NCBI GenBank assembly: GCA_021803575.1
Contig: JAJZLH010000005.1
Location: 1 to 63,793, forward strand
Source: Bacillota bacterium
GTDB lineage: Bacteria > Bacillota > Sulfobacillia > JAJZYS01 > JAJZLH01
Reading direction: 5' to 3'
DNA: 63,793 nt
Shown piece after piece: positions 12,348 to 44,100 of the stretch. The translations under genes and the position numbers were made by a program. Within the stretch, counting starts at the first letter, position 1. Each line of letters begins with the position of its first letter. The notes beneath the pieces were generated by a model. The model saw only the letters and a program-made list of their open reading frames with translations, had not been told where the DNA came from and did no database searches.

Positions 12348-12591
12348 GCAAACTGGCTTGACGAGACATGATCCGCACCGCTAGACTCATAAGCAGTTCC
12401 GGAACTCACTATACGGTCCCCACGATAAAGGCAAACACGTCGAAAGGCGTGGGCGCAAAACCACGGGCCTACAGCTCTTCTGAGCCACGGTAGCCGGGTT
12501 GCCGAAGGGGCACGAGGCTTGCATACAAGGTCTCTGCCATCGGCAGAGACCTTTGCGCGCGGGACCCCAGCTAGGGGTGACCCCGCCGGTG

Positions 12592-14095: not shown

Positions 14096-17000
14096 TCACT
14101 CGATGCCGGCCTTCTGCATCAGGTTCCAGACGATGACAGCGGCCTGAGCCCGCGTGGTGACGGCACTCGGAGAGAAGTCACCGTTGCTGCTTAGAGTCAT
14201 GACGCTGGTTGAGAGAGCCAGATTGACATCGTTGGCGGCCCAGGCCGGAATGGAGGAACCGTCCTTAGGAGTGACGCTGGAGGCGCCGCTCTGAATGCCC
14301 AGACCCCTCAACACCCTGGCCACGATCGCCGCCATCTGGGCGTTGGTGATCGGGGCGTCGGGCTGGAAGGTGCCGCCGGGGAAGCCCTTGATGTAGCCTT
14401 CGGTGGCCACTGCGCTGATCTCTTGCACTGCGTAGTAGGACGCCGCGACATCGCTGAACGTGGCGTTGCTGGGAATGTGCCAGAGACCGAGAGCCTTGGC
14501 GATCATGACTGCGAACTGGGCTCTGCTGACGCCGCCAGCCGGATCGAAGGTGCCGTTGCCCATGCCGTTCAGGATCAGCTTGTTGGCCAAGCCTTCAATC
14601 GCCTGCTGGGTGGCCTGCGGCAGGTTCGAGATGTCCGAGAAGGACACCTGGTTCTGAATCACCGCATAGGTCGAGTTGGTCAGCGACTCGATGGTCGCCG
14701 TGTTTCCGCTGAAGAGCGTCCAGGCATGCTCTGGCACGCCGTTCACCATGATGACTCCGGTGCTGGTCAGCGGATTGGGCTTGGCACTCAGGTTCAGGGT
14801 TCGGGGCACGCGGCCGGTGAACTCGGCGATGGTGGTGGTCTTGCCGTTGGCACTGACCGTCACCGTGAAGGTGACGGGGCTGGCCAGGATCGTAGCCGTT
14901 GGGGTCGTCGACTTGATGTCGGCGGTATCGGAGCTTGGCGCCGGTACGACCTGGACTGAGAGGGAAAGAGCCGTCTGACTGACGTCGAGCGACTTCGCCA
15001 GAGCCGCCAGGCCCAGAGATGCAACGGGAAGGGTGTAGGTGGCTGCCGGGGTGACCAGACTCACTTCCGAGTGGGAGGAGCCGAGGTCCGTGACTGCGGT
15101 GGTGGGTAGATTGAGCGTGGCCTGATCGGTGCTGGAGGTGAAGGCCACGTTTTCGTGAGTCCCGCTGCCCAGAGCTGATCCCAACTTTGAGCCGCTCACG
15201 TCAAGGGTGGAGGCGCCATTGGTCGTGGTGGTGGTGGCGTCGTGCGAAGCGTTCAACGAGCCAAGTGGTGGCACCACCGGAGGAGGGGTCGTGGCTGAGG
15301 ACGAGGGGCCCCGTCCAGCGCTCGGTGTACCCTCCGAGATCACCTGGGCGGTGTTGTTCAAGGTGGTGAGTTGCCCCGCCACCACCAGAGTGGCAGTCAA
15401 CTTTCCGAACCCTGGAACAGTAGTGGCCGCTGTGCAAGTGTACGTTGCGGTACCGGTGCTACTCACAGGTACGGTCTGACTGCCCTGGGTGCAGAGGCTG
15501 GTCCCGCTTCCCGAGAATTGTAGGGTCAGGCCCGTGAGCGGCCCCTTGACTGCGTTCTTGTCACTTCCGGTGAGAGTGACAGTTTCGGTGACCGTAGGGT
15601 GGTTATTGGCGAGGCTGAGGAGCGGGCTGGAGAGGGCCAGCGTGGAGATCCAGGGCTTGACGTTGGAGGATCCACCACTAACCTCAGTGCCACTGGGGCC
15701 GCTTACACTGCCCCACCAGTTGTCCGTGGCGTTAATGTTCGTGCCCGTGTAAGCTCCGCTGGCCACTCTCAGCCCACCCAGTGTGTTGCTGCTGCCCAGC
15801 GAGTTCAGAGTCGCCACGATGTTGCTGTTGGCGCCAAAGCCATAGAGGTTCTGGAGATGGATGGCCCAGCCTGTGCTGTTGCGGATCAGGTTGTCGCTCA
15901 AGGTGATGCCGCTATCCCCTCCACCGAGGTAGACTGCATCATTTGCACTCTTCGTGGGGCCGGTACCGTTGACGAAATTCCCTGTGATCGTGCTCTTGGT
16001 CACGTTGAAAAGCGCTAGCGCCGTGCCACCAGAGGCCGTGGTGCCCAAGAACTCGTTGTTGGCAATCGTGATCCCAGTTTCGAGTCCCGCCGAGCTGCCC
16101 GCCATCACTATTCCCGCACTCGAGTTGGCGGTGAATGTGTTATTGGCGATCACCGCGTTGGACAGTGCGCCGTCGGTGTAAATCCCATTACCGCTCGCCG
16201 AGCCGTTCTGATTGTTGTTGTTGAACAGGTCGTGCTCGACCAGCGTCGGATAGGTGCCGTCACTCTTCAGGTACACCCCGAACACATTGTTCTGGATGAT
16301 GTCGTTGATGATCTGTGTGCCCGAGATGTTCGCCTGGACATCAATGCCTGTACCGTAGTTGGGAGCGACATTGCTGTTGATGCTCGGCACTTGCGTTGCG
16401 ATCGTGAAGCCATCGATCACCACGTTGTTGGCGTTGACGCCGAAGCCTCCGGAACCAGAGGCATTTTCTGAGATCACCGTTTCGGGAACACCCGTCCTGG
16501 TTCTGGCGTCCACGCCGTGCTGTGCGCCTTCCAGTGTCACAGGCGTGGTGACTGTGACTCCTTCTGCGAAGGTCCCTGCTGCGGCCAAGATGGTATCACC
16601 TGACTTGGCCGCGTTCACCGCTGCCTGGATGGAGGCAAACTGGGCGCCGCTGGTGATATCGGTGACAGGTGCAAAGCCAGTGCCCGTGGTCGCTCCGACC
16701 ACCGGGGCACTGGTCAGCCAGGGAGCCACATTGACACCGCTGCTGACAGGAAGGCCCTGTGAACCCACGTCGTACGTGTTGACGCTGCCAGTCGGCCCAT
16801 TGGCACTGCCCCACCAGTTGTTCGTGGCGTTCAGCGTGAAGGAAGTGCTGTTGCTCAGGTTAGCGACTGCATAGCCGGCGACATCGCTGCCTGATGCTGG
16901 GGTTGCCAGCGAGCCCAGGCTGTTGAAGGCAACGGAGTTGCCTGAGTTGTTAAATGTCCCGAACATGGAACTCCCCGCCGGCCATGTCGCCGTGTTGTTG

Positions 17001-18879: not shown

Positions 18880-20136
18880 TTAAGTTGACTCTCTGCCCCT
18901 GGGCCGAATGGTGTGGTTCCAACCACCAGACACGGCCGGGCGCAACTTGCCGTGACGACCCGACACGTGGAGCCCTGCAGCCTCCGGCCAGGCCGGGACG
19001 CCCGGCCGGTGGTCGCTCCTGTCGTCCGAGTTCCGCGAGCGCTCCACGATCAGGCTGATCACGGTCTCCTGGCGCAATACCGACGTCGCGCCTCTCCAAG
19101 CCTGTATGGCATGACTGAAGAGTCTGACCTCGACGGAGTTCCATCTGTGCGTTCCCGGTGGAAAGTGGCAGGTGTCGATCACGAGTCCACTTTCGTCGGC
19201 CAACCGCTGAAGTTCGATCGTCACATCGGCAGCAGGCAACGGCCGCCATCTGCCTTCAGCTACGATCAGCATACGGTCGGTCGGCGGATAGGTGGCACGA
19301 CCGGCAGTGTGCCACCACTGGCGCAGACTCGGTAAGACACAGGCGGCCGTGTCACCGTCGTCCCACGGTCCATCCCAGCCCGCTTCCAACTCCGACTCGG
19401 GCGGGCTCTCTGCAACTTCCCCAGTCACCTCTGGCTCCAAGGTCCTGCTCGTGGCTCTGCGCTGCCCGGTGGACAGAGACTCGTCGCCGACATGTTCGAC
19501 CTGCTCACACCGCTTTGTTGCCAGTGAAATGACTGGCTGACCACGGTGGTGGTAGTCAAGGACTGTTTCGTTGATATGGCGAAACTGAGCCTCACGCTCC
19601 GCTTCTCTGCGGTCGTTGCCGACCGCACCGCTGGCCGACAGCGTGAATCCCAGGTCATGCAATATGACCCGCACAGTGCGCTCGCTGGTGTAGTGACCTC
19701 GGTTATCCAATGCAGCCGACAGTTGGCGGCAGCTCTTCGTGGTCCACAGTAGCGGCGCATCCGGCTCCCAGTGGATATCGGACTCCACCAGCCACTCCAG
19801 ATCCGGTAGCAAGGTTGGTTCAGTCTCGGTGAGCGGCTTTCGCCCGCCCCCGCGCCTCCGGACCCGACCGACCGGACCCGTACCGAAGTCGGCCAGTTCT
19901 CTGATTCCGCGGGCTACCGTGCGTCGGGACACTCCCAGCAACCTGCTGACACGAACCAGTCCGCCCACGCCATAGGCTACCGCCTCGGCAGCGGCGAACA
20001 GCCGCCGTTGCCGTTCATCCAGTAGCGGCGACACCAACTCAAACCGTCGCTTGATCCGTGCCCCGACCGCTTCGGACTCGGTCACCGTGCACTCCCCCGA
20101 TTCCGGTTTGCGGTGCCGCCCAAGCCGACCTGCCAA
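18880..20136 (-). CDS. ISAzo13-family transposase-like ORF (probably inactive)
   Basis: The N-terminus (RFELVSPLLDERQRRLFAAAEAVAYGVGG...RVRRRGGGRKPL) and the C-terminus (ELQRLADESGLVIDTCHFPPGTHRWNSVEVRLFS, GGWNHTIRPR) match the DDE_Tnp_ISAZ013 family as I remember it. The central catalytic region is shortened and substituted. Confidence 0.7.
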   Translation of the reverse strand: MAGRLGRHRKPESGECTVTESEAVGARIKRRFELVSPLLDERQRRLFAAAEAVAYGVGGLVRVSRLLGVSRRTVARGIRELADFGTGPVGRVRRRGGGRKPLTETEPTLLPDLEWLVESDIHWEPDAPLLWTTKSCRQLSAALDNRGHYTSERTVRVILHDLGFTLSASGAVGNDRREAEREAQFRHINETVLDYHHRGQPVISLATKRCEQVEHVGDESLSTGQRRATSRTLEPEVTGEVAESPPESELEAGWDGPWDDGDTAACVLPSLRQWWHTAGRATYPPTDRMLIVAEGRWRPLPAADVTIELQRLADESGLVIDTCHFPPGTHRWNSVEVRLFSHAIQAWRGATSVLRQETVISLIVERSRNSDDRSDHRPGVPAWPEAAGLHVSGRHGKLRPAVSGGWNHTIRPRGREST

Positions 20137-25122: not shown

Positions 25123-25377
25123 TCATGCGTTGGACTTCTCCCCGGCCCACTTCTCCACCAAGTGTGCCTCATATTCTCGGCGCCCTGTTTTCGGATCGAC
25201 CGGGCGGTCAGTGGCCAGAATGCCGCGCAACTGGGGCACGGTGCGGAGATGCACGGGAGTCAGAACGGCCCGCTCCCCTTCAACACTGATGGCGACTCGG
25301 TCGCCGGGTGCCAGGTGCAGCGCCTCCAGCAACCAGTTCGGGAGAACAATCTGACCACTCTTTCCGACCCTCGGCAT
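25123..25377 (-). CDS. AbrB/MazE/SpoVT-family DNA-binding protein (antitoxin-like), no adjacent toxin
   Basis: The sequence MPRVGKSGQIVLPNWLLEALHLAPGDRVAISVEGERAVLTPV shows the swapped-hairpin beta-barrel pattern. The start could also be 25383 or 25401. Confidence 0.6.
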   Translation of the reverse strand: MPRVGKSGQIVLPNWLLEALHLAPGDRVAISVEGERAVLTPVHLRTVPQLRGILATDRPVDPKTGRREYEAHLVEKWAGEKSNA

Positions 25378-25664
25378 GTCCATGGCTCTCACTCCGATCA
25401 TGAAACGATGTTCTTCTCCTCAGTGGGTTTCCCTCGCAAGCTCCACTTGCGCCAAGACCTGCTGATTCGGCCGGTGCGGCCCGGTCAAGGCTGGCATGCC
25501 TCAGACCCTAGCACAGGGAAGTTCCCGTGCTGCTCGCCCATCCTCGGGGGAAGCGTCAGGGCACCACGCCCGCTCTCGGAGCACGCCGACCTTCTTCACC
25601 GGGGCGACGGCACGGCACACAGACGCCCTCGTCAAGAGGGCCGCATCCGAGTCAGCCTGGCCTC

Positions 25665-27685: not shown

Positions 27686-30268
27686 TCACGCTTGCGGTTG
27701 TGGGACCGCCGGCGCGGGCAGGACACCTCTCGTCTCTTGCCACAGCTCCATCAGGTGAGGGGCGGTGAGAGGGCGGCTGAAAAGGAAGCCCTGAACCTCT
27801 GAGCAGCCTTCTTGAGCCAACCACTCCAACTGCCGCTCAGTCTCCACCCCTTCCGCCACCACCGACAGTCGGAGCCCATGTGCCATGCCCAGGATGGCAC
27901 GCACGATCTCCCGGTCGTCGTGCTGTTCCGGGAGGCCACTGACGAAGGAGCGGTCGATCTTCAGCCCGACGATCGGCAGGCGCTTCAAGTAGCTGAGGGA
28001 CGAGTAGCCGGTGCCAAAGTCGTCGATGAAGAGGCGAACGCCAAGGCGGCGGAGCTCGTTCAGGGTATCGACCACCACCTGGTTGTCCTGGGCCAGGCTG
28101 TTCTCGGTCATCTCCAGCACAAGCTGGCGCGGATTGACGCCGGAGTCCCGGATGATCGCCAGCACCGAATCCCGGAAGGTCGGCTGATTGAGGTGCCGGG
28201 CCGAGATGTTGACGCCAACGGTCAGGCCGCCCAACCCCTGCGCTTGCCAGCGGCAGGCCTGGGCACAGGCCTCCTCTAGCACCCACTCACTGATCGGCAC
28301 GATCAGGCCGCGGTCCTCGGCGACCGGGATGAACTCGGCCGGCGACACCAGGCCGAACCCCGGCCGCTGCCAGCGCACCAGGGCCTCGGCGCCGCTGATG
28401 CGCCGGGATGGCAGGCTGACGGTAGGCTGGTAGTGCAGCACAAACTGCCGGGCCCGGATCGCCCGGCGCAGGGCTGTATCCAAGGACAGCGCCTGACGCA
28501 GATCGGACTCCATATCCGCGCTGTAGAAGCAGGGCTGGCTGGCGTCCGTCTCCACAGCTCGGCGCATCGCCACCTCGGCCTGGTGGATCAACGTCGCCTC
28601 GTCCCGGCTGTCAGCTGGAAACAGGCTGAGGCCGATGCTGGCTCCGGCCGGGAGCGTGTTGCCGTTGACGACCAGCGGCCGTGCCAGTGCCTTCAGAAGC
28701 TTGCCGGCTACCGTCTTCACGGCGTCCCGGTCGGAAGGCCCCTGCAACACGACCACAAATTCCTGGCTGCCGTAACGGGCTACCAGGTCAACGCCGCGCA
28801 GGCACTGCCGCATGCGCTGGCTGGCCGCCTTCAGTAGCTCGTCCCCGATGGCGTGCCCGTAGGCGTCACTGACCTCCTGCATCTGGGCCAGCTTGATCAG
28901 GGCCACCGCCACCATCGTCCCCGGGCGGCGCGCCGCTGTGTCCAGGGCCTCTCGCAGGCGCCTGCCCAGCTCGCCGCCACTGGGCAGCCCGGTCAAGGCA
29001 TCATGATCGGCCAAGAAGGTGAGCCGCTCTTCATCCGCCTTGCGCTGGCTCAAGTCGGCCACCAAGAGGAGGTGGTGGGTGACCGCCCCGTGGGTGTCGC
29101 GCACCTGCGACATGGTCAGCTGGATGGGCTGCGCCTGACCATCCTTGCGCTTTAGCCACAGCTCCCCCTGCCACGACCCCGTGCGGTGCAACTCCGTCTC
29201 AAGTGCCTGGCGGGAGAGGCCGGAGTGCTCCTCTGACAGGCCCACCGTCCCAAGCGGGCTGCCGATCAGGTCAGCCGCCGAAAACCCGCTGAGCTGGGTG
29301 AAGGTGCGGTTCACGGCCACGATCTGGTCGGCGCGGTCGGTGATCAGAATGCCATGGCTGGTGCTCTCGAACACAGAGGCGGCGAGCCTGAGCTGGAGTT
29401 CGGTCTCCCTCTCGCCGCGGAGGTCATGGACGATCAGGGCGCTGCCGAGTCTCTGGCCCAGTTCGTCCTGGAGCGGCGAGATCGACACCGAGACCGGTAT
29501 CGACTCTCCGCTCTTGGAGCGGTGGATGGCGTCGTGGCGCGGCAGCTTCTCGCCCAGCCTGAGCCGGCCGTTCGCCTCCTGCACCTGTCGTCGCCGGTCC
29601 GGTGGCACGATCAGCGATCCGGACCGGCCGATCGCTTCTAGCGCGCTGTAGCCGTAGAGGTCTTCGGCCGCACGGTTCCAGCTCGTGATCACGAATTCGC
29701 TGTTGAGTCCGATGATGGCTTCCGACGCCGACGCCACAATGGCGCCGAGCCGCGCCAGGGCAGTCTCGCCGGCCAATAGGTCGCTCAGGTCGGTGACCAA
29801 GAGCCCGATCGTGGGCAGATCGCCACTGCTGCCGGCAAAGGCGTGACAATGGGTCGCCACCGTCTTCCCTGCACTGTCTTGAAAGTCGAGGCGCTGGCGC
29901 GGTTGGCCGTCAGCCGGCGCCCGTAGCAGCTGCACCAGGGCGCGCTGAGACGATGCGCAGACGAAACTCTGCACAGAAGCGCCGATCACCCGCTCCAGCG
30001 GGGTCTTGACCAGGGAGGCGAAGGGGCTGTTGGCATAGAGGATGAGTCCCTCCGGGTTAACACTGATGGCGCCCTCGGCCGTTTGCTCGACCATGCGCCG
30101 GTAGCCCTCGTCCACTCCGCCATCCGCTTCAGGGACGCGCAGTTCGCTCTGGTCGCTCTGCCGCTTGGCTGAGCCGAGGCCGGCGGCGCCCTGCCGGAAT
30201 CCCTTGGCCACCACCGCCAGCTTGGGCGGCCCCCGCCGAGGCTTCCTGGTCCCCACATCGCGACGCAT
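27686..30268 (-). CDS. PAS-PAS-PAS / degenerate GGDEF / EAL signalling protein (likely c-di-GMP phosphodiesterase)
   Basis: Start set to ATG 30268, which overlaps the kaiB stop (TGATG). There are three PAS-like segments. The GGDEF motif reads GSQEF (28757..28771) with RGVD (RxxD) 5 aa upstream. The EAL domain looks intact (GAEALVRW, DDFGTGYSSLSYL, KIDRSF, EGVET). Confidence 0.85.
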   Translation of the reverse strand: MRRDVGTRKPRRGPPKLAVVAKGFRQGAAGLGSAKRQSDQSELRVPEADGGVDEGYRRMVEQTAEGAISVNPEGLILYANSPFASLVKTPLERVIGASVQSFVCASSQRALVQLLRAPADGQPRQRLDFQDSAGKTVATHCHAFAGSSGDLPTIGLLVTDLSDLLAGETALARLGAIVASASEAIIGLNSEFVITSWNRAAEDLYGYSALEAIGRSGSLIVPPDRRRQVQEANGRLRLGEKLPRHDAIHRSKSGESIPVSVSISPLQDELGQRLGSALIVHDLRGERETELQLRLAASVFESTSHGILITDRADQIVAVNRTFTQLSGFSAADLIGSPLGTVGLSEEHSGLSRQALETELHRTGSWQGELWLKRKDGQAQPIQLTMSQVRDTHGAVTHHLLLVADLSQRKADEERLTFLADHDALTGLPSGGELGRRLREALDTAARRPGTMVAVALIKLAQMQEVSDAYGHAIGDELLKAASQRMRQCLRGVDLVARYGSQEFVVVLQGPSDRDAVKTVAGKLLKALARPLVVNGNTLPAGASIGLSLFPADSRDEATLIHQAEVAMRRAVETDASQPCFYSADMESDLRQALSLDTALRRAIRARQFVLHYQPTVSLPSRRISGAEALVRWQRPGFGLVSPAEFIPVAEDRGLIVPISEWVLEEACAQACRWQAQGLGGLTVGVNISARHLNQPTFRDSVLAIIRDSGVNPRQLVLEMTENSLAQDNQVVVDTLNELRRLGVRLFIDDFGTGYSSLSYLKRLPIVGLKIDRSFVSGLPEQHDDREIVRAILGMAHGLRLSVVAEGVETERQLEWLAQEGCSEVQGFLFSRPLTAPHLMELWQETRGVLPAPAVPQPQA

Positions 30269-30582
30269 CAGCCCTGGCCCCGAATGCCCAGCCCGGCCAG
30301 CACCCGCGCCCTCTGAGACAGGTCTCCGATCACACTGCGCACCGGCAGCGGCGCCGTCTTGACCAAGGTCGGAATGGCGAGGATCTGGTCCCGCTGGGCC
30401 AGTTCCGGCTGCTGATGGATGTCGATCACTTCCAGATCGCACTGGCCCCCCAACTCCTCGGCACAGATGGCGGTGATGTTGGTGATGGCCAGCGTCGACA
30501 CGCCGGCCATGCCGGCCACGTAGAGACGGAGCCGGTAGCGCAACTGGTCATCGGCTGGCCGCATGGCCGCTTGTGCCCTCAT
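30268..30582 (-). CDS. kaiB: Circadian clock protein KaiB homologue
   Basis: LRLYVAGMAGVSTLAITNITAICAEELGGQCDLEVIDIHQQPELAQRDQILAIPTLVKTAPLPVRSVIGDLS follows the KaiB thioredoxin-like pattern. The start overlaps the kaiC stop as ATGA. Confidence 0.85.
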   Translation of the reverse strand: MRAQAAMRPADDQLRYRLRLYVAGMAGVSTLAITNITAICAEELGGQCDLEVIDIHQQPELAQRDQILAIPTLVKTAPLPVRSVIGDLSQRARVLAGLGIRGQG

Positions 30583-32333
30583 CGGCGCTTTCTCGACCGC
30601 GCCGCAACGGGCACCTGTTCCGCCGCGTTGGTGCTGCGCTCACGTTCAGAAGCGGCCTGACTCATGCGCAGATCGCCCAGCCGGGTGGCCTCGGCCTCCA
30701 GGGCGGCTTCCAGTTCGGCCTGCTCGGCCTGGAACTGCGTCTGCAGCTGAATCACAGCCGACTCCGTCACCACCCGCTTGCGCTCGATCACCGCCCGCTG
30801 CCGGGCGGCCTCCCGGCCCCGCTCCTCGCGGGTCGCCCGCGCCGCGGTCTGGGTTGCCAGACGGGCGGAGCCAAGCAGCACGCCGTCTGGTCCCAGCTGC
30901 ACATCGATCAGATCCACCCCGTGGTCGCTGACCAAAAACTCACGCACCTGATTGGAGTGGGCCATGCCACGCGACTTCAGCACACTGAGCGTGCGGTTTC
31001 GCTCACCCTGATACTCCACGTTGCGCAGCACGATCCAGCTGTCGATCAGAGACGAGATGCCGGTCTGGCTCGGGGTCTCGTCGGTCTCGCCCTGGATCAG
31101 GGTGCTCATCATCACGGTGACGCTCCGCGACTTCAGGAAGTCGGTGAGCCGGGTCAGCATCGCTCTGACCTCAATCGGCCTGCCGACCAGATCGAAGGCC
31201 CCGATCTGGTCGACCACCACCACCGCCGGGTCAACCACCTGAACCAGACGTTGCATCTCCATCAGGTGCCACTCCAGGCCGGCTCCGGTGGGGCGCAGCG
31301 AGCGCACCGTCAACAGCCCGGCCTGCTGCCAGTGTTCGATGTCGATGCCAATCGACCGCATGTTGCGGGCGATCTGCATCGGCGACTCCTCCAGGGCCAG
31401 ATAGAGACAGCGCTGACCGCGGGCGCAGGCGGCGTCGGCGAAGTGGGCACAGAGCGAGCCCTTGCCGCTGCCGGCGTGGCCGGAGACCAAGATGGCGCTC
31501 CCTTCCAGGAACCCCTTGCCGCCCAGCATCTGGTCGAGCTTGGCGACGCCGCTGGACAGGCGGGCCGTCCCGGCTGGATGGTCCAACGACGACGACTTGA
31601 TGGCGAACAGGGCGACGCCGTGAGCGTCGATCAGGAACGGGCACTCGTTGCTGCCGTGCTGAGAGCCCCGGTACTTGACCACCCGCAGGCGGCGGGTTGA
31701 GATCCCCTGATCGAGATCCTGGTGCAAGGAGAGCACGCAGTCCGACACATACTCTTCAATTCCGTAGCGGGTCAGGCTGTTGAGCCCGGCCTCGGCGGTG
31801 ACGATGGCGGTCACCCCACGTTCGGAGAGCCAGCGAAACAATCGGCGCAGTTCGCCGCGCACCACCGAGCCATCGCCCTGACCCTGGAACAGCACTTCCA
31901 GGGTGTCCAGCACCACCCGTTTGGCTCCGACCTGATCAATGGCGTGGGCGAGCCGGACGAACAGCCCCTCCAGGTCGAAGTCTCCGGTCGCCTGGCTCTG
32001 GTCGGGCACCGCCTCGACATGATCCAGGTAGATGTGACCCCCTGCCACCAGGGCTGCCAGGTCGACGCCCAGCGAGGCGACGTTCACCACCAGGTCGTCC
32101 GGGCGCTCCTCGAAGGACATGAAGACACCGGGCTCTTCCAGTTCCGCTGCCCCGTAGACCAGGAACTGGAGACTGAGCAGCGTCTTGCCACTGCCCGCCG
32201 TACCACAGACCAGTGTTGTCCGTCCGGCGGGCAAGCCGCCGCCAGTGATCTCGTCCAATCCGGGGATGCCGGTGGCCGACTTCTTGAGGCCGGCGAGTAG
32301 GCGGTGCTCGGTGCGATCTGTACTCACGGCCAT
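30579..32333 (-). CDS. kaiC: Circadian clock protein KaiC homologue (double RecA-like domains) with long C-terminal extension
   Basis: CI has Walker A GTAGSGKT and FEE. CII has GHAGSGKGS and LEES. ISS at aa 426-428 aligns to the IST phosphosite segment, and the KSRGMAHSNQVREF tail is present. About 85 extra Ala/Glu/Gln/Arg-rich residues follow at the C-terminus. The RBS AGAGGGAG lies upstream of ATG 32333. Confidence 0.9.
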   Translation of the reverse strand: MAVSTDRTEHRLLAGLKKSATGIPGLDEITGGGLPAGRTTLVCGTAGSGKTLLSLQFLVYGAAELEEPGVFMSFEERPDDLVVNVASLGVDLAALVAGGHIYLDHVEAVPDQSQATGDFDLEGLFVRLAHAIDQVGAKRVVLDTLEVLFQGQGDGSVVRGELRRLFRWLSERGVTAIVTAEAGLNSLTRYGIEEYVSDCVLSLHQDLDQGISTRRLRVVKYRGSQHGSNECPFLIDAHGVALFAIKSSSLDHPAGTARLSSGVAKLDQMLGGKGFLEGSAILVSGHAGSGKGSLCAHFADAACARGQRCLYLALEESPMQIARNMRSIGIDIEHWQQAGLLTVRSLRPTGAGLEWHLMEMQRLVQVVDPAVVVVDQIGAFDLVGRPIEVRAMLTRLTDFLKSRSVTVMMSTLIQGETDETPSQTGISSLIDSWIVLRNVEYQGERNRTLSVLKSRGMAHSNQVREFLVSDHGVDLIDVQLGPDGVLLGSARLATQTAARATREERGREAARQRAVIERKRVVTESAVIQLQTQFQAEQAELEAALEAEATRLGDLRMSQAASERERSTNAAEQVPVAARSRKRR

Positions 32334-32958: not shown

Positions 32959-32987
32959 TTGATATGTAGGCCATTATGTTCTACATT
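32959..32987 (+). promoter_or_regulatory. Promoter of phd-vapC pair (TTGATA-17-TACATT) with ATGTAG-N11-CTACAT inverted repeat
   Basis: -35 at 32959..32964 and -10 at 32982..32987. The inverted-repeat arms lie at 32964..32969 and 32981..32986. ATG 32994 begins 7 nt after the -10. Confidence 0.5.
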
Positions 32988-32993
32988 GAGCAC

Positions 32994-33272
32994 ATGGAAC
33001 GTCAGGTGCCCGTACGCGAGTTGAACCAGCAGACCAGCGCCGTCCTCGCCGCGGTGGCTGGCGGACAGGCCGTCACGGTGACACGCGCCGGCCGTCCGAT
33101 CGCCCGCCTGGTGCCAGTCCAGGATGGGGAGACGTGGCTACTGGGCCTCGTGTCGGCGGGACGGGCGACCGCTGCCACGATGACCCGCCCGTTTACGATG
33201 CCCCCTGCCGACAACTACGGCGGCGATGTCTCCGAGCGGCTGGCCGACGACCGGCGGGATGAGCGCTGGTGA
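32994..33272 (+). CDS. Phd/YefM-family type II antitoxin
   Basis: MERQVPVRELNQQTSAVLAAVAGGQAVTVTRAGRPIARLVP fits the Phd/YefM N-terminal fold pattern. The stop overlaps the downstream PIN gene start. The track start 32976 would lie upstream of the predicted TSS. Confidence 0.75.
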   Translation: MERQVPVRELNQQTSAVLAAVAGGQAVTVTRAGRPIARLVPVQDGETWLLGLVSAGRATAATMTRPFTMPPADNYGGDVSERLADDRRDERW

Positions 33273-33676
33273 TCTACCTCGACTCGTCCGCAGTGATCAA
33301 GCTGGTGCGCCGAGAAACAGGAAGCAGAGAACTCCTCGACTGGCTGGCTGCGCACCCGGAATCGGTCCTGATCTCCTCTGTGCTGGTAGAGGTCGAGGTC
33401 CCCCGGACCATCCGCCGCTATGCCCCTGGGGCGCTGGCCCGGATTCCCCGCGTCTTGGCTGGCTTGGCCCGGATCGAGATCGACCCTACCATTCGCGCCA
33501 CTGCCGCAGCTTATACGGACAGCGCCCTTCGTAGCCTGGACGCCATCCACCTGGCGACCGCCGATCTTGCGGCGTCCGAGGGGGAGCCGCTCGAAGCCTT
33601 CGTGGCCTATGATCGCCGCCTGCTTACCGCGGCCCAGGCGCGAGGATTCCCGACGGCCAGCCCCGGGCTGGACTGA
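33269..33676 (+). CDS. vapC: PIN-domain toxin (VapC family)
   Basis: IYLDSSAVIKL (first acidic residue), LVEVEV, and LDAIHLATA...AYDRRL (conserved Asp residues). The GTG start overlaps the antitoxin stop. Confidence 0.8.
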   Translation: MIYLDSSAVIKLVRRETGSRELLDWLAAHPESVLISSVLVEVEVPRTIRRYAPGALARIPRVLAGLARIEIDPTIRATAAAYTDSALRSLDAIHLATADLAASEGEPLEAFVAYDRRLLTAAQARGFPTASPGLD

Positions 33677-36793: not shown

Positions 36794-39700
36794 TCAGGCG
36801 GTGGGCAGGGCGGGCACGGTACCGCCGGCCTGGTCGGGAGGGAGTTGGGGACCCGCCCGTCTGGGGCTGCCATGGCGGGCGACATAGGCGTCGAGCCAGG
36901 GCAGGAGGTCCTGGACCAAGGGCGCGAAGGGGTCCAGCCAGTCCGGAAGCCCGGGCAGGTCCGGCAGTTCCGGCCGGCCGCCGCCGAGCGCCTCCTGGCA
37001 GCGTTGCCACCACACGTGGGGGTGGTATTCGAAGAGGGCGGAAACCAGCCCGAGTGCCCGCCGCCGGTCGGCCTCGGCGCCGCTCAGCTCCCACATCCGG
37101 AAGGCCACCAGCGCCCTCGCCTCGGCAGCCAGCGGCCGCCCGGCCACGGCGGCCATCTCTTCCCGGGCGGTCCGACGGGAGGTCTGGCCGCTGGCCTGGC
37201 GCCAGCGGATGCGGTTCAACTCGAGCCGCACCGCCGCCTGCGGTGTGCCCGCCTCCCTGACCGGCCAGGCCTCTTCCAGGAGCGGTCCCACCCGCTCCAG
37301 CCGGCCGCTATCGAGGAGCAGGTCGGTGAGGTGGCAGATCTGGAGGGCCAGGTAGCTGGGGATGGGGAAGGCCCGGGCCAGCGCCATGGCCAGATCGGAC
37401 AGGCGCTCACCGCCGGCTTTGTCCTCCTGCTCCGCCCGGCACAGCGCCAGCACACCGGTGATGACGCTGATCGCCCGCATGTCGTTCGTGTCCAGGGCCA
37501 GGCGCAAGGAGGCGGCCACCAGCCGCTCAGCCTCCGCCCACCGCCCTGCGCCCTGATAGCAGGCACCGAGGTTGTTCAGCCCGTAGCAGAGGTGCCGGCT
37601 GAGGCCGTGGCTGTGGGCCAGCTCCACCACTTCCCGCTGGTAGCCGGCGCCGGCGGCCAGCTTGCCGGTCTCCTCCAGGACGACGCCCAGGCTGCCCGTC
37701 GCCTCCAGCAAGCCGCCCAGGTCGCCGCAGCGTTCGGCGCTCTGGCGGGCCTGGTGGTAGCTGTCGGTGGCCGCTGCGTACTGGCCGCGTTCGTACTCCA
37801 GATCTCCCAGCCGGTTCAGGGCCGACACCGCCACAGGCAGCTCCCCGCACCGCTCGGCCAGGACCCTGGCCTCGCCGAGGAGGTGCTCTGCCTGGTCAAA
37901 GTCCTGACGCAGCCCGAACAGCTCACCCCGGCAGAGCAGGGCCAGCGCCCGCTGCCGCTCGTCACCGATGGCGGCCAGAACCTCTCCGCTGTCCTCGGCC
38001 AGCACCTGGGCACTCACCACGTCGCCGCCCAGGGAGAGGATGCGGGCCAAGCCGAGCCGGCCGCTGGCGGCGATGGCCAGCGCTCCTTCAGAAACGGCCA
38101 GCTGGATGGTCTGCCGGTAGGCCGCCTCGGCCTCGGCGGCCAGGCCGGCCTGGTACAGCATGTCGGCGCGCCCCAGCGCGATCTCGGGCTGCTCAGCGGG
38201 CGGACTGAGGGCCAGCAGCCTGGCACGGGCGAAGGCCGCTTCCTCCAGCAGGCAGGCGCGTTCGGCCTGGGCTGCCAGCTGCCGGTAGGCCTCCCGGGCC
38301 CGCTCCTTCTCCCCGGCTTCCTCCCACAGCCGTCCCTGGTCGCCGAGGCCGGCCCCGCTCTCAGCGAGGGCCCCGGCCAGCAAGCCAGCCAGCTGTTGCC
38401 GGCGCCGGGGCGCGATCTGGCGGAGTACCGCCTCCGCCAGGGCACTGTGGTGAAAAGACAGCCGGCCGCCCTCGTCCGCGGTCACGATCCGGGTCTGGAT
38501 CAGGTCCTCGACGCTGGACAGGCGGGCCCCCTTGGTGCAGGCGATCAGCCACCTTGGGTCGGCCGGCCGCCCGAGCAGAGCCAGTGCCTCGGCCAGCCGC
38601 CGCTCCACCGACGGCAGGTGGGCGAGGCGGCGGGCCAGGGTCGCCTGCATGGTGGGGCCAAGGCCCAGCTCGCTGCCGCCGCTCTCCTTCTCCAATAGCC
38701 ACAGCCGGGCCGCTTCCAGGAGGTGGAGCGGGCTGCCCTGGGCGATGGCCAACAGTTCGGCCTCCACCTGGGGCGGCGGTGCTGCCACCTGCCGGACCAG
38801 GCTGGCCGCCTCGGCATCGGACAGGGGCCCGACCACGATCAGCTGGCAGGCCACGGCGCTGCCCACCGCCTCGAACAGCTCCCGGCGGCGGGCGACCGTG
38901 CGGCGGTCACTGCGGCTGACAGCGACGAGCAGCGCCGGCAGCCGGCTGAGGTGCCTGGCTGCCAGCCGGATCCAGTCCCAGCTGTCCCCGTCGGCATCCT
39001 GCAAGTCGTCCAGCACCCACACGCATGGCGCATCTGCCACCATCGCCTCGACCGCCGCCATCAGGCGGCGCAGGCGCGACCCCTCCGACAGCGGGGCGAC
39101 CGCAGGGGCGTCCGGCCGAGCCATGGACCCGGGTGCGAGCAGCGCACCGAGCTCTTCTGCCCACGGCGGCGCCAGGGCGGGCAGCGGCGGCCCGCTGCCC
39201 AGAGCGCTGACCACCGCCTCCAGGCTTGGTCCCGGCACCCCCGAGGCGTGCCCGATGCGGGCGTTCACCCCCTGGGCGGCGACCCAGCGGGCAAACTCCC
39301 CGGCCAGCGCCGACTTGCCGATCCCGGACTCTCCCTCCACCCAGACCAGGCCAAACTGGCCGCGCCGGCTGAGGTCCCAGGCCGCCCGCAAGGACGCCCA
39401 CTGCCGGGTCCTGCCCACAAAGCTGATCTCACCGTCCGCAGGGGGCTCGGCGGCCAGCGCCAGAAGGCGCTGGTAGTCCTGCCGCAAGAGCTCTGACGGC
39501 TCATCCGAGAAGGCCCGGGCGAAGCGATGCTCCACCGCGCTCCAGACCTGGTGCAGCGCCTCCTTGCCGCCGGCGCTGGCCGCCAGTCTGAGCGCCCAGG
39601 CCCAGCTGGCCTCGTCTGCCGGGTTGCGCTCGGCGACGGCGAGGGCCAGTTCCAGCGCCTCCGGATAGCGCCGCTCGCGCTCCAGGAGCAGGGCCAGCGC

Positions 39701-40231
39701 CCGGCACAGGCGGTCATATAGCGCCGCCAGCCTGATCCTCGGCTCTTCTGCCCAGGGCTGAGGGCACTCCGGCAAGAGGTCGCCGGCATAGGCCTCGAGC
39801 GCCCGCTTGAGTTCACTCTCTCCGGCCGCCTGCCTGGCCAGCTCCTCGAACCGCGCCACGTCCACCGCCACATCGAGTTCCGCCCGCCAGCTGAGCGTCT
39901 GGACATCCGCGGCAATCAGGGCAGCGACCTCGGGCAAACGCTGGCTGAGTGCGAAGAGGGCCTTTCTCAGATTGGTCGCAGCCTGACTGGACAGACTGTC
40001 CGGCCACAGCGCCTCTGCCGCCTCCGCACGCCTGAGGCCTGGGCGGCCGGCCAGGGCAAGGAGCGCCACGAGCGAGCGCACGCTCCACAGCCCTGGGTCG
40101 GGCTGGGGCTCGCCGTCCAGGCGAATGGAAAAGCCGCCGAGCAGGCGGATTTCCAAGCTGCGGTGAGGCGCACCGATCCGAGCGGCGACCTCGCCGCCCA
40201 GATGCGCCGGGGCCGGTCCGGCAGAGGCCAC
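36794..40231 (-). CDS. SARP/AfsR-like STAND regulator (OmpR-type wHTH + BTAD + P-loop NTPase + TPR array)
   Basis: N-terminal LEIRLLGGFSIRLDG...NLRKALFALSQRL, a BTAD-like helical region and the P-loop VEGESGIGKSAL. Long TPR-like repeats fill the C-terminal half. Confidence 0.75.
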   Translation of the reverse strand: MASAGPAPAHLGGEVAARIGAPHRSLEIRLLGGFSIRLDGEPQPDPGLWSVRSLVALLALAGRPGLRRAEAAEALWPDSLSSQAATNLRKALFALSQRLPEVAALIAADVQTLSWRAELDVAVDVARFEELARQAAGESELKRALEAYAGDLLPECPQPWAEEPRIRLAALYDRLCRALALLLERERRYPEALELALAVAERNPADEASWAWALRLAASAGGKEALHQVWSAVEHRFARAFSDEPSELLRQDYQRLLALAAEPPADGEISFVGRTRQWASLRAAWDLSRRGQFGLVWVEGESGIGKSALAGEFARWVAAQGVNARIGHASGVPGPSLEAVVSALGSGPPLPALAPPWAEELGALLAPGSMARPDAPAVAPLSEGSRLRRLMAAVEAMVADAPCVWVLDDLQDADGDSWDWIRLAARHLSRLPALLVAVSRSDRRTVARRRELFEAVGSAVACQLIVVGPLSDAEAASLVRQVAAPPPQVEAELLAIAQGSPLHLLEAARLWLLEKESGGSELGLGPTMQATLARRLAHLPSVERRLAEALALLGRPADPRWLIACTKGARLSSVEDLIQTRIVTADEGGRLSFHHSALAEAVLRQIAPRRRQQLAGLLAGALAESGAGLGDQGRLWEEAGEKERAREAYRQLAAQAERACLLEEAAFARARLLALSPPAEQPEIALGRADMLYQAGLAAEAEAAYRQTIQLAVSEGALAIAASGRLGLARILSLGGDVVSAQVLAEDSGEVLAAIGDERQRALALLCRGELFGLRQDFDQAEHLLGEARVLAERCGELPVAVSALNRLGDLEYERGQYAAATDSYHQARQSAERCGDLGGLLEATGSLGVVLEETGKLAAGAGYQREVVELAHSHGLSRHLCYGLNNLGACYQGAGRWAEAERLVAASLRLALDTNDMRAISVITGVLALCRAEQEDKAGGERLSDLAMALARAFPIPSYLALQICHLTDLLLDSGRLERVGPLLEEAWPVREAGTPQAAVRLELNRIRWRQASGQTSRRTAREEMAAVAGRPLAAEARALVAFRMWELSGAEADRRRALGLVSALFEYHPHVWWQRCQEALGGGRPELPDLPGLPDWLDPFAPLVQDLLPWLDAYVARHGSPRRAGPQLPPDQAGGTVPALPTA

Positions 40232-40380: not shown

Positions 40381-40758
40381 TCAGACCATCTCAACTCTGG
40401 CCGGGTAGCCGGCCAGCGCCGGGTCGTGCGTCACCAGAGCCAGTGGCTCCTGGACGGCCTGGGCGATCAGCAGCCGGTCGAAGGGGTCCCGGTGATGCGG
40501 AGCCAATGCGCTGAGCTGGGCCGCGTGACGGGCCAGGACCGGCAATTCATCGAATCCGCTGGCTCGGATGCCCTCCACCATCCCGGTCAGATCGACCTCC
40601 AGCTTGCCGATCGCCACCTTGATCGCCGCCTCCCACACCGAGGCGGCGCTGACGTACACCCGATCGGCATCTCTGATCAGCCGTCTGGCCTCACTGCTCA
40701 GTTCTGGCGCATCGGCCAAGTACCACAGGTAGACGTGCGTGTCGAGCAAGAGGCGCAT
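40381..40758 (-). CDS. vapC: PIN-domain toxin (VapC family)
   Basis: MRLLLDTHVYLWY...SAASVWEAAIK...HHRDPFDRLLIAQA fits the PIN pattern. The start is 1 nt after the antitoxin stop. Confidence 0.8.
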   Translation of the reverse strand: MRLLLDTHVYLWYLADAPELSSEARRLIRDADRVYVSAASVWEAAIKVAIGKLEVDLTGMVEGIRASGFDELPVLARHAAQLSALAPHHRDPFDRLLIAQAVQEPLALVTHDPALAGYPARVEMV

Positions 40759-40759
40759 C

Positions 40760-40993
40760 TCAGCCTTCGAACTCCGCCAGCACACTGTCGGGGAGCGGTG
40801 CGTCGAAGTCGGCCGCCACCTTGATCCTGCCCTTCAGGAATCCCGGTGCGCGATGGGGTTTGCCGTCGCCGAGCCCGACCAGACGGGCGACCGGCTGGCC
40901 TGCCTTGGCGATGACGATCTCTTCGCCGCCAGCCACCTCGGCAAGAAGGCGTGATAAGTGCGTCTTGGCGTCGTGGATGTTCACGGTCTTCAT
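40760..40993 (-). CDS. Phd/YefM-family type II antitoxin
   Basis: MKTVNIHDAKTHLSRLLAEVAGGEEIVIAKAGQPVARLV. ATG 40993 lies 5 nt after GGGGGTG. The track start GTG 40999 is also possible. Confidence 0.75.
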   Translation of the reverse strand: MKTVNIHDAKTHLSRLLAEVAGGEEIVIAKAGQPVARLVGLGDGKPHRAPGFLKGRIKVAADFDAPLPDSVLAEFEG

Positions 40994-41119: not shown

Positions 41120-44100
41120 TCACTTCAGCTTGGAGGTGCTCTGTGGCCCTGACGCCATGGCCGCCCTGACGCTGGGAGCGGAGCTGGCGCCGGCGGTGGT
41201 GGGCCGATGGCTCAACACCAGCGCCAAAAGCTGTGCCGCCTGTGCTCGGGTGGCCAGGGCCAGGGGCTGGAAACTGCCATCCGGGAAGCCGGTGACATAG
41301 CCTGCCGCCACAGCCTCCTCCACCCCCGCCCGGGCCCAGGGAGAGATCTGGGCCACGTCCGTGAAGCTCAGGGTGGCCGTGGTGGCAAGCTTCAGGGCCC
41401 GGGCGACCATCACCGCCATCTGGGCACGGGTCAGCACGGCGTTCGGCGAGAAGGCGGTGGCCGAGGTGCCCTGGACGATCCCGGCCCCAAGCGCCGCCGC
41501 CACATAGGGATCAAACCAGGCGCTGGCGCTCACATCGCTAAACGGCACCTGCCCGCTGTGCGGGGTGAGGCCGAGGACGAGGTCGAGCATCTTGACGAAC
41601 TCAGCCCGGGTGACGGCCTGGGCCGGCCGGAAGGATCCGTCCTGGAAGCCGGACACCACACCCTTTCCGGCCAGCGTCTCGATGGCGCCGTACGCCCAGT
41701 AGCCGCTGGTGACGTCTGAGAAGCTCGGCCCTGCCGCCACCGCCGCCTGGTAGGTGAACTGGTCGCCGGCGCTGGCGGGGCTGGTCCCGGCCGGCGTTGT
41801 CACCGTGACCTCCACTGTGCCGGAGCCCGGGGGCGACAGGGCGGTGATCTCGCTGTCCGACACCACGGTGAACGAGCTGGCCGGGGTGGTCCCGAAGGCC
41901 ACGCTCCGGGCGTCGGTCAGGTGGAGACCGCTGATCGTGACGGCCGTGCCGCCGGCGGCCGGTCCGCTGGCGGGCTGGATGGCCGTCAGCGCGGGGGCGA
42001 CGGCCACAGCGCCGCCACCTCTCACGGGCGGCGGGGCGATCGCCACGGCGAAGACGGTGCCGGTCAGCTGGGCGATTTCAGGAGAGGTGGCGGGCGTGGC
42101 CGTGAAGCTGAGACAGCCGGTCGCGGCGTCATAGCTGGCGGCTGGAGCCACCGCCTGCCAGGTGCTGCCGTCCAGCCACTCCAGGACGGTGCCGGCAGCG
42201 ACGTTGCACTGGGAGATGACGACGGTCTGGAACCCTCCCGTGGCTGGCGTGGAGACGGCCACGTCGAAGTACTGGCCGGCGGCGTTGAAGCTGGCAGCCA
42301 CGCCCGGGTCCGTCGTGTAGTCAGTGACGGCCACCGAGCCGGTGCCGCCCGAGACCTGGGCCACCGTGTCCGGCGTGGCGGTGCCCGCCCCCCCCGCCGT
42401 GACGCTTTGGTCCGGCGACTGGTCGGAGGCGTTGCTGGACCCGCTCACCACCTGGTCCACGCCCTCGGTCTGGGCGGTGGCCGCCACCAGGGCGATGGAG
42501 AGCGTCTCGCTGGCCGTCTCCGGCGTGGGCGAGCTGTCGGTGACGGTCACGGTGAAGAAGTAGACGCCGGGCGTGGTCTGGCCGGTGGCAGAGATGATGC
42601 CATAGGTGGGATCGAGACTGAAGCCCTGGGGCAGACCTGTCGCCGACCACTGGTAGGGTGCGACACCGTCGGTGGCCTGCACCACCGCCGCGTAGTAGCC
42701 GCCGGCCACGCCGCCCGGCAGCGAGGTGGTGGTGATCTCGAGCTGGCTGTTCTGCTGTCCGGCCGTGAAGCTCTGGGCTCCCGATCCGCTGCCGGCCAGC
42801 CCGTCGGTGCCGCTGTAGGTGCGCTTGGCACTGCCATACATGGTGGTGCAGGCGAAGCCCTCGACGCCGTTCTGGCTGGCGGTGAGCCCGCACTTGGAGT
42901 AGCCGCCCAGGCCGCCGGCGCCGCCGGTGCCGCCGCTGGCCAGGTTGGCCGCCCCGTTGTACGCGCTCTGCCCGCCAAAGGTGAGACTGCTCACCTGGAC
43001 GCTGGCCCCAGCCGTCTCATAGATCGCCCCGCCCTGGGCGCCGCCGCCGTTCCCGCCGTCTCCGCCCAGGCCGCCGGCGGCGCCCAGCGACTTGAGCGGC
43101 TTGACACCGCCCTTGCCATCGGCGCCGGCGGGCACCGTGCAGCCGTAGACGGGTTGCGACAGTCCCGCCTCGGTGTATCCGCAGGTGAGGCCGCCGGGGC
43201 CGCCGCCGCCGGGCGATCCCTGGACGCCGTCTGCGGCGCTGCCGCCGGGGCCGCCGTCGGCACCCGGGCCGCCGCTTGCCAGGTTGCCGCCGTCTTGGCT
43301 GTCCCCGAACACGGTACCGTCCACACTGAGGCTGCCGCCGTCCCAGATGGCACCGCCCTGCGCCATGCCGCCATCACCGCCGGCGCCGCCCACCCCGCCT
43401 GGGGCACTGTTGCCGCTGGCGCCGCCTGTCCCGCCGTCTCCGCCCTTGCCTGGGCTGCCGGTGCCGTGCGGGCATCCGGTCGCCGGTACGGTTACGTCAC
43501 CGCCCTGGCCACCGTTGCCGCCGTTGCCACCGACCCCGCCGATGCCGCCGAAGTTGATACCGGCCGACTGCTCATAACCGCCGGTGCTCCCCTCCGCCTG
43601 GTTGCCGGCAAAGTCGCCCCCGGTGATCTGGAGCGTGCCCAGGCTGTAGATGGCGCCGCCCATCGCCGCACCGCCGGCTCCGCCCACCCCGGACGCACCG
43701 CCCTGACCGCCGGCACCGCCGCTCCCGCCCGGATAGCCCTCGCCGCCGGCGCTGGCATTGATGCACACGTCACTGCCGCCTTTGGGACCTGTCTGCCCGG
43801 ATACGCCGAGCCCGCCCTGGCCGCCCTGGCCGCCGACATTGCCCATTCCGCCGCCGCCGCCCACCGCTCGGTTCCCGACGAAGTCCACATTCTTGAGGGT
43901 GAGGCTGCCCAGGTTGTAGATGGCACCACCTTGTGCTGTGCCGCCGGAGCCGCCGCTGCCGCCCACACCGCCGGCTCCGCCCGAACCGGCTGAGGTCGGC
44001 GACTCAGTCGCGCCGCCGCCACCGCCGCCGATGCCGCCGGCGCCACCGGCCCCGCCGTCTCCGCCCACACCGCCCATGGCCAGGTTTCCGGAGAAGGCGC

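Follow-up and report, generated by a model that had tools for sequence, protein, structure and literature searches.

The closest described counterpart of the system analyzed here is the KaiBC pair of Rhodobacter sphaeroides, in which the ATP/ADP ratio drives an hourglass-type behaviour (Pitsawong et al. 2023, PMC10076222). The KaiC2 clade is defined by a Ser-Ser phospho-site pair together with a C-terminal extension, and the KaiC2 tail stands in for KaiA by keeping the A-loop exposed, resulting in KaiA-independent phosphorylation (PMC10076222). In Synechococcus elongatus the protein KidA (Synpcc7942_1859) binds fold-switched KaiB through its PAS domains, and PAS genes that share an operon with kaiBC were noted for bacteria other than cyanobacteria in the same study (Kim et al. 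2022, PMC9478674). The gene context of kaiC and kaiB followed by a histidine kinase or GGDEF/EAL gene has also been recorded (De Luca et al. 2011, PMC3164672, Fig. 4/S6). In our literature searches we met with no functional work on a Kai-GGDEF/EAL system encoded in one operon, nor with any report of Kai in Sulfobacillus. Here we analyzed a kaiC-kaiB pair that is followed by a gene for a PAS-GGDEF-EAL protein, a predicted phosphodiesterase (PDE) of cyclic di-GMP (c-di-GMP), in a stretch of 63,793 nucleotides from a Bacillota bacterium (GenBank assembly GCA_021803575.1, contig JAJZLH010000005.1, positions 1 to 63,793), the whole of which is hereafter referred to as the window. We conclude that kaiC, kaiB and the PDE gene form one translationally coupled, conserved operon, and that this operon does not represent a new kind of system but a rare form, specific to its lineage, of an arrangement that was known before though functionally unexplored. 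The questions it addresses are how non-cyanobacterial Kai modules signal to the cell, and whether the enzymatic domains of KidA tie the clock to c-di-GMP.

A coupled and conserved kaiC-kaiB-PDE operon

All three open reading frames (ORFs) are on the minus strand, arranged head to tail in the order kaiC, kaiB and PDE, the PDE gene being located directly downstream of kaiB on the same strand (Table 1). The ATG of kaiB lies within the 3' end of kaiC (CGC CGA TGA), which creates an ATGA overlap, and the stop codon of kaiB (TGA, 30270-30268) and the start codon of the PDE gene (ATG, 30268-30266) have one A in common, which creates the sequence TGATG. The sequence, the Pfam matches and the gene calls thus bear out the original prediction, made from the DNA letters of the window, which described both junctions and a third protein of 860 amino acids with three PAS domains, a degenerate GGDEF domain and an intact EAL domain. 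Independent gene calls on public contigs likewise place the PDE start at TGATG, giving 860 amino acids, and the orthologues of the PDE begin at the same TGATG with MRRxVG. For this reason we rejected a PDE of 918 amino acids starting from a GTG at 30442, although this is the longest ORF.

The order kaiC-kaiB-PDE-integrase-deacetylase was found in three Sulfobacillus lineages, namely those of the window, of loci L003-L006 and of locus L087. All three have kept TGATG intact, while the synonymous divergence (dS) from the window amounts to approximately 0.9-1.0. The adjacency is more than chance because gene order and TGATG are kept in L003 and L087 at this level of divergence. A survey of the linkage in relatives had been suggested as a check, and the claim that the three genes are one tightly coupled unit now rests on both the overlaps and the co-conservation. 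All three genes are under purifying selection. Compared to the two other lineages, the protein identities and ratios of non-synonymous to synonymous substitution rates (dN/dS) were 87-88% and 0.07-0.10 for kaiC, 71-76% and 0.19-0.24 for kaiB, and 64-66% and 0.28-0.30 for the PDE. Upstream of kaiC, a -10-like hexamer (TATAAT in L003, TAGAAT in L087) and a Shine-Dalgarno sequence are kept, while the rest of the intergenic spacer has diverged. A scan with the sigma-70 consensus gave no match on this strand, so the start of the operon is a putative one.

The Pfam family KaiC (PF06745) matches the 584-residue protein twice (8e-103), in agreement with two tandem RecA-like domains, and the best solved structure found with HMMER was R. 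sphaeroides KaiC (8DBA, E-value 2e-165, residues 15-551 of 584 aligned). KaiB, with 104 residues, matches PF07689 (1e-23) and has as its best solved structure the R. sphaeroides KaiB in the KaiBC complex (8FWJ chain M, E-value 6e-22). In an alignment with 19 homologues, the window KaiC keeps the CI Walker A motif, both Glu pairs, the Ser-Ser pair and the C-terminal extension. S427 and S428 are invariant in this alignment, and a Ser-Ser pair is present in 110 of 123 homologues. The extension was found in all 20 aligned KaiC2-type sequences, and its designation as a coiled coil is by alignment to 8DBA. Judged from these sequence features, the protein is assignable to the KaiC2 / KaiC-RS type, KaiC-RS being the R. 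sphaeroides protein. As had been predicted, the window seems to hold no kaiA, no sasA/cikA-type kinase and no rpaA: no KaiA domain was detected among the window ORFs scanned with Pfam, and histidine-kinase and receiver seeds taken from approximately 50 Kai-linked kinases gave no match among the window ORFs.

The CII Walker A motif of the window KaiC reads GK-G-S, with Gly292 in the Thr/Ser position. Gly at this position was observed in 5 of 123 homologues, all of which belong to the Sulfobacillus lineage, in none of the 118 others, and in no true case in the loci of the survey described below. Among the approximately 200 KaiC2-type proteins that we examined, the GK-G-S P-loop is thus confined to the Sulfobacillus lineage. 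Close KaiC relatives (99% and 88% identity) were found in this lineage only, after which the identity drops to approximately 55% across many phyla; a metagenome scan with the window KaiC gave no close relatives, the maximum identity being 57%. One homologue (P0065, 675 residues, from a 4.18-Mb contig) is an apparent KaiC-KaiB fusion in which a KaiB domain follows the coiled-coil tail in one frame; it is possibly a true fusion, possibly the product of a sequencing frameshift.

The partner protein and the gene after kaiB

Pfam recognizes three PAS domains, a GGDEF domain (3e-31) and an EAL domain (4e-76) in the protein encoded after kaiB. The catalytic motifs of the EAL domain are all intact, including, besides those listed in Table 1, the N, EMTE (ExxE), KID (KxD) and QG motifs, and the partner is therefore predicted to be an EAL-intact c-di-GMP phosphodiesterase. 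The GGDEF domain has GSQEF in place of its signature motif, LPSGG for LPNR and IKLA for IDLD, and has kept an RxxD I-site (RGVD); it is predicted to be dead as a diguanylate cyclase. Since two orthologues read GGDEF (P0134, P0135) and one reads GEDEF (P0136), the loss of the cyclase site is recent and specific to the lineage of the window. The EAL domain is the most constrained domain of the PDE (77% identity to orthologues, dN/dS 0.19-0.26); evolution is more rapid in the PAS and GGDEF parts, with the weakest constraint on GGDEF. We also considered a LOV-type PAS domain, but dropped this idea as no NCRFL-type cysteine motif was found on reading the PDE sequence.

To place this partner among those of other Kai operons, we surveyed the gene after kaiB in two samples. 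The first consisted of 80 genomes with KaiC2-type genes among the matches listed, all from lineages other than that of the window, in 56 of which the gene after kaiB could be read. The second consisted of 80 metagenomic loci with 44 readable partners, for which only the GGDEF and EAL calls were used, the kinase and HD-GYP labels being unreliable because the seeds overlapped the PAS region. With few exceptions, the product of the gene after kaiB in the 56 genomes is a signalling protein with PAS domains. At least 34 of these partners are histidine kinases with HATPase_c, to which HWE and HisKA_2/3 types are to be added, which is consistent with the earlier statement that a PAS histidine kinase is the usual partner of KaiA-less KaiBC. 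A PAS-GGDEF-EAL gene directly follows kaiB in 5 of the 56 (L016 Rhodoferax, L036 Roseateles, L053 and L083 Halochromatium, and L069, a metagenome-assembled genome (MAG) of the Methylococcaceae), a sigma-54 activator in 3, an HD-GYP-type protein in 2, and a short PAS-only protein in a few. The metagenomic sample contained no GGDEF-EAL partner and one GGDEF-only partner among 44, which brings the pooled frequency of GGDEF-EAL partners to approximately 5 in 100 loci. Such a partner is rare but recurrent. The original prediction had called c-di-GMP an unusual output route for a Kai timer. This holds in so far as the route is uncommon, but the route is not new, as is evident from the 5 PAS-GGDEF-EAL and 2 HD-GYP-type partners among the 56, from the gene context recorded previously (PMC3164672) and from KidA (PMC9478674). 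The usual gene order is kaiC-kaiB-kaiB2-PAS protein. Two tandem kaiB paralogues are present in most KaiC2-type operons, and only one in the window and in 3 of the 5 proteobacterial PDE-linked loci.

Nearly all Kai-operon partners start with a 51-residue N-terminal motif (consensus ...LRARLEEAEETLRAIRSGEVDALVV...VYTLKGA; also given as ...EELRARLEEAEETLRAIRSGEVDALVVSGPDGEQVYTLKGA), which is followed by a distinctive first PAS domain. This motif, of which we found no description in the literature consulted, was detected in all five proteobacterial Kai-linked PDEs (E-values from 1e-14 to 6e-25) and in 37 of the 44 metagenomic partners, but in none of 116 generic PAS-GGDEF-EAL proteins. It represents a candidate Kai-docking module. 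The motif is present whatever the output domain is, be it a kinase, a sigma-54 activator, an HD-GYP domain, a GGDEF-EAL pair or none, and its carriers occur in loci L007-L086 and L090-L169 (for example L069:2902-3486 and L010:7044-7628). A profile of the motif and the first PAS domain (PAS-A) was also run against larger collections. A set of 5.8 billion proteins returned only short or fragmentary proteins, which were useless for counting output domains. In 1.84 billion representatives, 79 of the top 150 matches had the motif, 77 of these being kinase-like and 2 having GGDEF, which is not a fair tally as the ranking was dominated by giant multi-PAS proteins.

With a PAS-A profile built from kinase-type Kai partners only, the PAS-A domain of the window PDE scored 78.9 bits and those of its Sulfobacillus orthologues 69-73 bits. 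The held-out proteobacterial Kai-linked PDEs scored 111-132 bits, and the maximum over 347 PAS domains of the 116 generic proteins was 60.4 bits. PAS-B and PAS-C of the window scored 38.9 and 53.4 bits, respectively, which is inside the generic range. By this measure, the window PAS-A is a diverged member of a partner-specific PAS subfamily.

Possible roles of the partner

By analogy with other Kai systems, we propose that the partner, through its PAS region, reads the state of the Kai module and turns it into hydrolysis of c-di-GMP, and we assign a probability of roughly 0.5 to this reading. The locus would then encode a KaiA-independent KaiC2/KaiB hourglass module together with its own signalling partner, a PDE taking the place of the usual PAS histidine kinase. 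If the homology with KaiC-RS is a guide, KaiC would autophosphorylate without KaiA, its coiled-coil tail holding the A-loop exposed, and KaiB would bind CI in the post-hydrolysis state and drive dephosphorylation as the ATP/ADP ratio falls. As in the KidA-KaiB and SasA-KaiC pairs, the N-terminal PAS region of the partner would dock on KaiB or on KaiB-KaiC in one phospho-state. Docking would switch the EAL domain, and the c-di-GMP level would follow the Kai state without a His-Asp relay. The presumably dead GGDEF domain with its retained RxxD site might, speculatively, serve as a regulatory or scaffold domain. What speaks for this reading are the overlapping frames, the order and junction kept in three lineages whose upstream flanks differ, the purifying selection on all three genes, the likeness of KaiC with its tail and of KaiB to the R. 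sphaeroides proteins, the PAS-domain partners with varied output domains that follow kaiB in the surveyed genomes, the score of PAS-A above all 347 generic domains, the binding of KaiB by the PAS domains of KidA, and a c-di-GMP-I-type riboswitch elsewhere in the window.

Several observations weigh against this proposal. The profile of the 51-residue motif was unmatched in the window PDE, in its Sulfobacillus orthologues and in every ORF of the window, and because of this absence the docking mode of the partner, if any, may differ from that of other Kai partners. The margin of PAS-A is modest, with 78.9 bits against a generic maximum of 60.4 and true family members at 111-132. Gly292 stands where a Thr or Ser normally ligates Mg2+, and may weaken the kinase activity on which a phospho-timer depends. 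However, a Gly after the Lys need not abolish phosphotransfer, because adenylate kinases normally have a GxxGxGKG[ST] P-loop, which GK-G-S resembles. Lastly, the GGDEF and EAL domains of KidA are dispensable for its clock phenotype (PMC9478674), so that even KidA, the best precedent, does not establish that signals pass from Kai to the enzyme.

The example of KidA can also be read in the opposite direction, with the partner acting as an input to or modulator of the Kai module rather than as its output. In that case the PAS domains would be sensors of redox state, oxygen or a metabolite, binding of KaiB would tune the supply of KaiB to KaiC, and the EAL domain would be regulated separately. KidA indeed shortens the clock period through PAS-ABC alone, without GGDEF and EAL (PMC9478674), the PDE has three PAS domains of which PAS-B and PAS-C look generic, as expected for sensors, and its EAL domain has evolved more slowly than its PAS and GGDEF parts. 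Nevertheless, we consider an input role unlikely: no other part of the protein is as constrained as the EAL domain, and the joining of one N-terminal module to kinases, sigma-54 activators, HD-GYP and GGDEF-EAL domains is a pattern typical of an output adaptor. A different possibility is that KaiC-KaiB is not a time-keeper but a nucleotide- or stress-responsive ATPase switch, which together with the PDE adjusts c-di-GMP-dependent biofilm formation or attachment. The change of Thr/Ser to Gly in CII, which is seen in this lineage only and could impair the autokinase, would fit such a switch, as would a host that is a non-phototrophic acidophile, and non-timing roles have reportedly been described for Legionella KaiBC and Pseudomonas KaiC. 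Yet conservation extends to Ser427/Ser428, both EE pairs and the coiled-coil tail, the dN/dS of kaiC is as low as 0.07-0.10, and the Gly by itself does not amount to a loss of phosphotransfer, as the P-loops of adenylate kinases illustrate; a switch without timing is in our opinion improbable.

It is also conceivable that a generic PAS-GGDEF-EAL gene landed beside kaiCB and is merely co-transcribed, so that the adjacency would be meaningless. Mobile and defence genes abound in the region, an integrase gene directly follows the trio, the nearest PDE homologues outside Sulfobacillus are not linked to kai, and the N-terminal motif is absent. We nonetheless regard this as very unlikely, since three lineages that have diverged to a dS of approximately 1 retain the trio with its one-base overlap amid changing flanks, a linkage of this kind is seen again in Proteobacteria, and the window PAS-A is nearer to the PAS of Kai partners than any of the 347 generic PAS domains.

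In a neighbour-joining tree of KaiC built without bootstrap, the KaiCs of the five GGDEF-EAL-linked loci and one HD-GYP-type-linked locus were found in one clade, which points to a sub-lineage of Kai systems devoted to c-di-GMP output. The members of this clade (L016, L023, L036, L053, L069 and L083) come from Proteobacteria and Chloroflexia. In the same tree the Sulfobacillus KaiCs are set apart on a long branch of their own. Outside Sulfobacillus, the PDE has as its closest overall homologues ordinary, kai-unlinked PAS-GGDEF-EAL proteins. Given the separate KaiC branch, these generic PDE homologues and the missing motif, the Sulfobacillus linkage looks like a second recruitment, independent of the proteobacterial clade and with a diverged docking module. 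Features that are specific to this lineage are a partner without the N-terminal motif and the CII GK-G-S; the linkage, too, seems to be independent of the proteobacterial clade. A more complete version of our proposal would be that a post-translational Kai hourglass directly gates c-di-GMP hydrolysis through a contact between KaiB/KaiC and PAS, with an independent origin, a KaiC with a GKGS P-loop like that of adenylate kinases and a docking surface that differs because the usual N-terminal motif is absent, which would allow a chemolithotrophic acidophile to time attachment or biofilm formation by ATP/ADP cycles without a two-component relay. Taken as a whole, this version is tentative and rather doubtful.

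The trio is important because KaiC, KaiB and an EAL-only enzyme made from coupled frames provide a compact three-protein test of whether the Kai phospho-state controls a second messenger. The analysis also brought out three further points, namely that Kai-operon partners are modular, that the partner of this lineage lacks the N-terminal motif and that the P-loop reads GK-G-S. Since Kai-operon partners combine one N-terminal module with varied outputs, the question can be framed more generally, and the CII P-loop represents a natural variant at a residue that is normally deemed essential.

Chromosomal setting and comparison with known systems

The RpoD encoded in the window shares 94% identity with the RpoD of a MAG to which NCBI gives the name Sulfobacillus sp., and Sulfobacillus belongs to the Bacillota, which places the operon in a non-phototrophic acidophile and agrees with the Bacillota-like non-phototroph that had been predicted. 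The glyS-PPDK-HD-dnaG-rpoD block is located directly upstream of kaiC in two related lineages. In the window, approximately 19 kb separate rpoD from kaiC, and this stretch encodes STAND NTPases, a surface protein of 2923 residues with SLH and Kelch repeats, toxin-antitoxin pairs and a methyltransferase. Downstream of the PDE, a tyrosine recombinase (integrase) and a polysaccharide deacetylase are present in all lineages, while the flanks upstream of the trio differ between the three. We rejected the idea that the trio is a recently mobile island, since the trio, integrase and deacetylase adjoin the dnaG-rpoD block in 3 of 3 lineages and only the intervening insertions differ. Because the dnaG-rpoD block, the recombinase and the deacetylase are neighbours common to the lineages, the trio is a resident chromosomal unit in a rearrangement-prone neighbourhood. 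Other genes of the window are listed in Table 1. The DNA left of the tRNA cluster, with its lower GC content, is probably a defence island. The presence of a c-di-GMP-I-type riboswitch indicates that c-di-GMP or a related dinucleotide is probably sensed by the organism; a literature search on the GGC variant gave no information on its ligand.

Table 1. Positions of the kai operon, its sequence features and other elements in the window (numbered from the first nucleotide of the window).
Feature	Position	Strand	Remarks
kaiC	32333-30579	minus	584 aa
kaiB	30582-30268	minus	104 aa, one copy; overlaps kaiC
PDE gene, PAS-PAS-PAS-GGDEF (predicted dead)-EAL	30268-27686	minus	860 aa
Putative operon start	-10-like TATGAT 32405-32400; Shine-Dalgarno AGGGAG 32347-32342	minus	5' of kaiC
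KaiC CI Walker A, GTAGSGKT	32181-32204	minus	canonical
KaiC catalytic EE pairs	within 32103-32117 and 31383-31397	minus	both present
KaiC CII Walker A, GHAGSGK-G-S	31455-31481	minus	Gly292 in Thr/Ser position
KaiC Ser427-Ser428 phospho-site pair (GISSLID)	within 31041-31061	minus	
KaiC C-terminal extension	30582-30845	minus	approximately 88 aa, helical, charged; aligns with R. sphaeroides coiled-coil tail
PDE lineage-specific basic N-terminus (MRRDVGTRKPRRGPPKLAVVAKGFR...)	30116-30268	minus	in place of the 51-aa Kai-partner motif
PDE PAS-A	29753-30115	minus	residues 52-172; most like first PAS of Kai-operon partners
PDE PAS-B and PAS-C	29018-29740	minus	residues 177-295 and 300-417; Pfam PAS_4, PAS_9
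PDE degenerate GGDEF domain	28547-29011	minus	GSQEF 28757-28771 (residues 500-504); RGVD 28787-28798
PDE EAL domain	27770-28474	minus	EAL 28370-28387; DDFGTGYSS 27998-28024; EGVE 27842-27853
glyS-PPDK-HD-dnaG-rpoD block	52-62 kb		
STAND-type NTPases (two)	36794-40231; 49914-52256	minus	AAA_16 and TPR repeats, nSTAND1/6; either side of giant surface-protein gene, inside the ~19 kb by which rpoD and kaiC are separated in the window but not in related genomes
Giant surface protein	41120-49891	minus	2923 aa; S-layer homology, Kelch, Big_1/invasin and TIG repeats
Giant surface protein	14096-18595	minus	1499 aa; S-layer homology, beta-helix/NosD repeats
ISAzo13-family DDE transposase and toxin-antitoxin modules (MazE, Phd/PIN, PIN)	18880-20136; 25123-25401; 32976-33676; 40381-40785	minus; minus; plus; minus	around the kai operon
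c-di-GMP-I-GGC riboswitch aptamer (RF03167)	12421-12507	plus	76.5 bits, gathering score 59; directly upstream of the subtilase-family ORF; possible cyclic-dinucleotide effector
Subtilase-family ORF	12499-14055		518 aa
tRNA-Val/Met/Asn cluster	12048-12296	minus	
DNA left of tRNA cluster	1-12000		GC lower, 55-61%
DndB	5623-6735		left of tRNA cluster
DNA methyltransferases (two)	8085-11943		left of tRNA cluster

In the cyanobacterial KaiABC oscillator KaiA is present, whereas the window gave no match to a KaiA domain and its KaiC is of the type that works without KaiA. The likeness to SasA-RpaA, the output of KaiABC, is conceptual, in that a signalling protein would read the state of KaiC/KaiB; SasA, a histidine kinase, has a KaiB-like domain at its N-terminus, and the window contains no such gene. 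The order of the enzymatic domains is reminiscent of PdeA (CC3396) of Caulobacter (Christen et al. 2005), in which an inactive GGDEF domain (GEDEF) reportedly still binds GTP and precedes an active EAL domain. The likeness thus lies in an inactive, plausibly regulatory GGDEF domain before an EAL domain, the activity of which is predicted in the case of the window. In contrast to PdeA, the GGDEF domain of the window has also lost several nucleotide-binding residues, only the RxxD site being left.

The proteobacterial Kai-GGDEF-EAL loci resemble the window in that a PAS-GGDEF-EAL gene directly follows kaiB, often with a stop/start overlap. Their partners have the N-terminal motif and an intact GGDEF domain, whereas the window partner has neither. 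KidA was likened to the window PDE by domain architecture alone, both having multiple PAS domains, GGDEF and EAL. KidA has four PAS domains (4xPAS-GGDEF-EAL) and has kept the catalytic residues of both GGDEF and EAL, whereas the window PDE has three PAS domains and a GGDEF domain that is predicted to be dead. Moreover, KidA works in a KaiABC oscillator and the window system lacks KaiA within the window, and kidA is not described as part of a kai operon but set against the PAS genes that lie in kai operons elsewhere than in cyanobacteria (PMC9478674), whereas the window PDE is co-operonic with kaiCB.

Compared to R. sphaeroides KaiBC (8DBA, 8FWI, 8FWJ; PMC10076222), the identity is only approximately 50%, and the CII motif is GK-G-S in the window but GK-S-S in KaiC-RS. 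The partner in the window is a predicted c-di-GMP phosphodiesterase, and the host is an acidophilic member of the Bacillota instead of a purple phototroph. Nevertheless, the two systems have in common the Ser-Ser pair, a C-terminal extension of at least 50 amino acids, the absence of KaiA and the adjacency of kaiC and kaiB, and R. sphaeroides KaiBC is the best solved-structure match for both the KaiC and the KaiB of the window.

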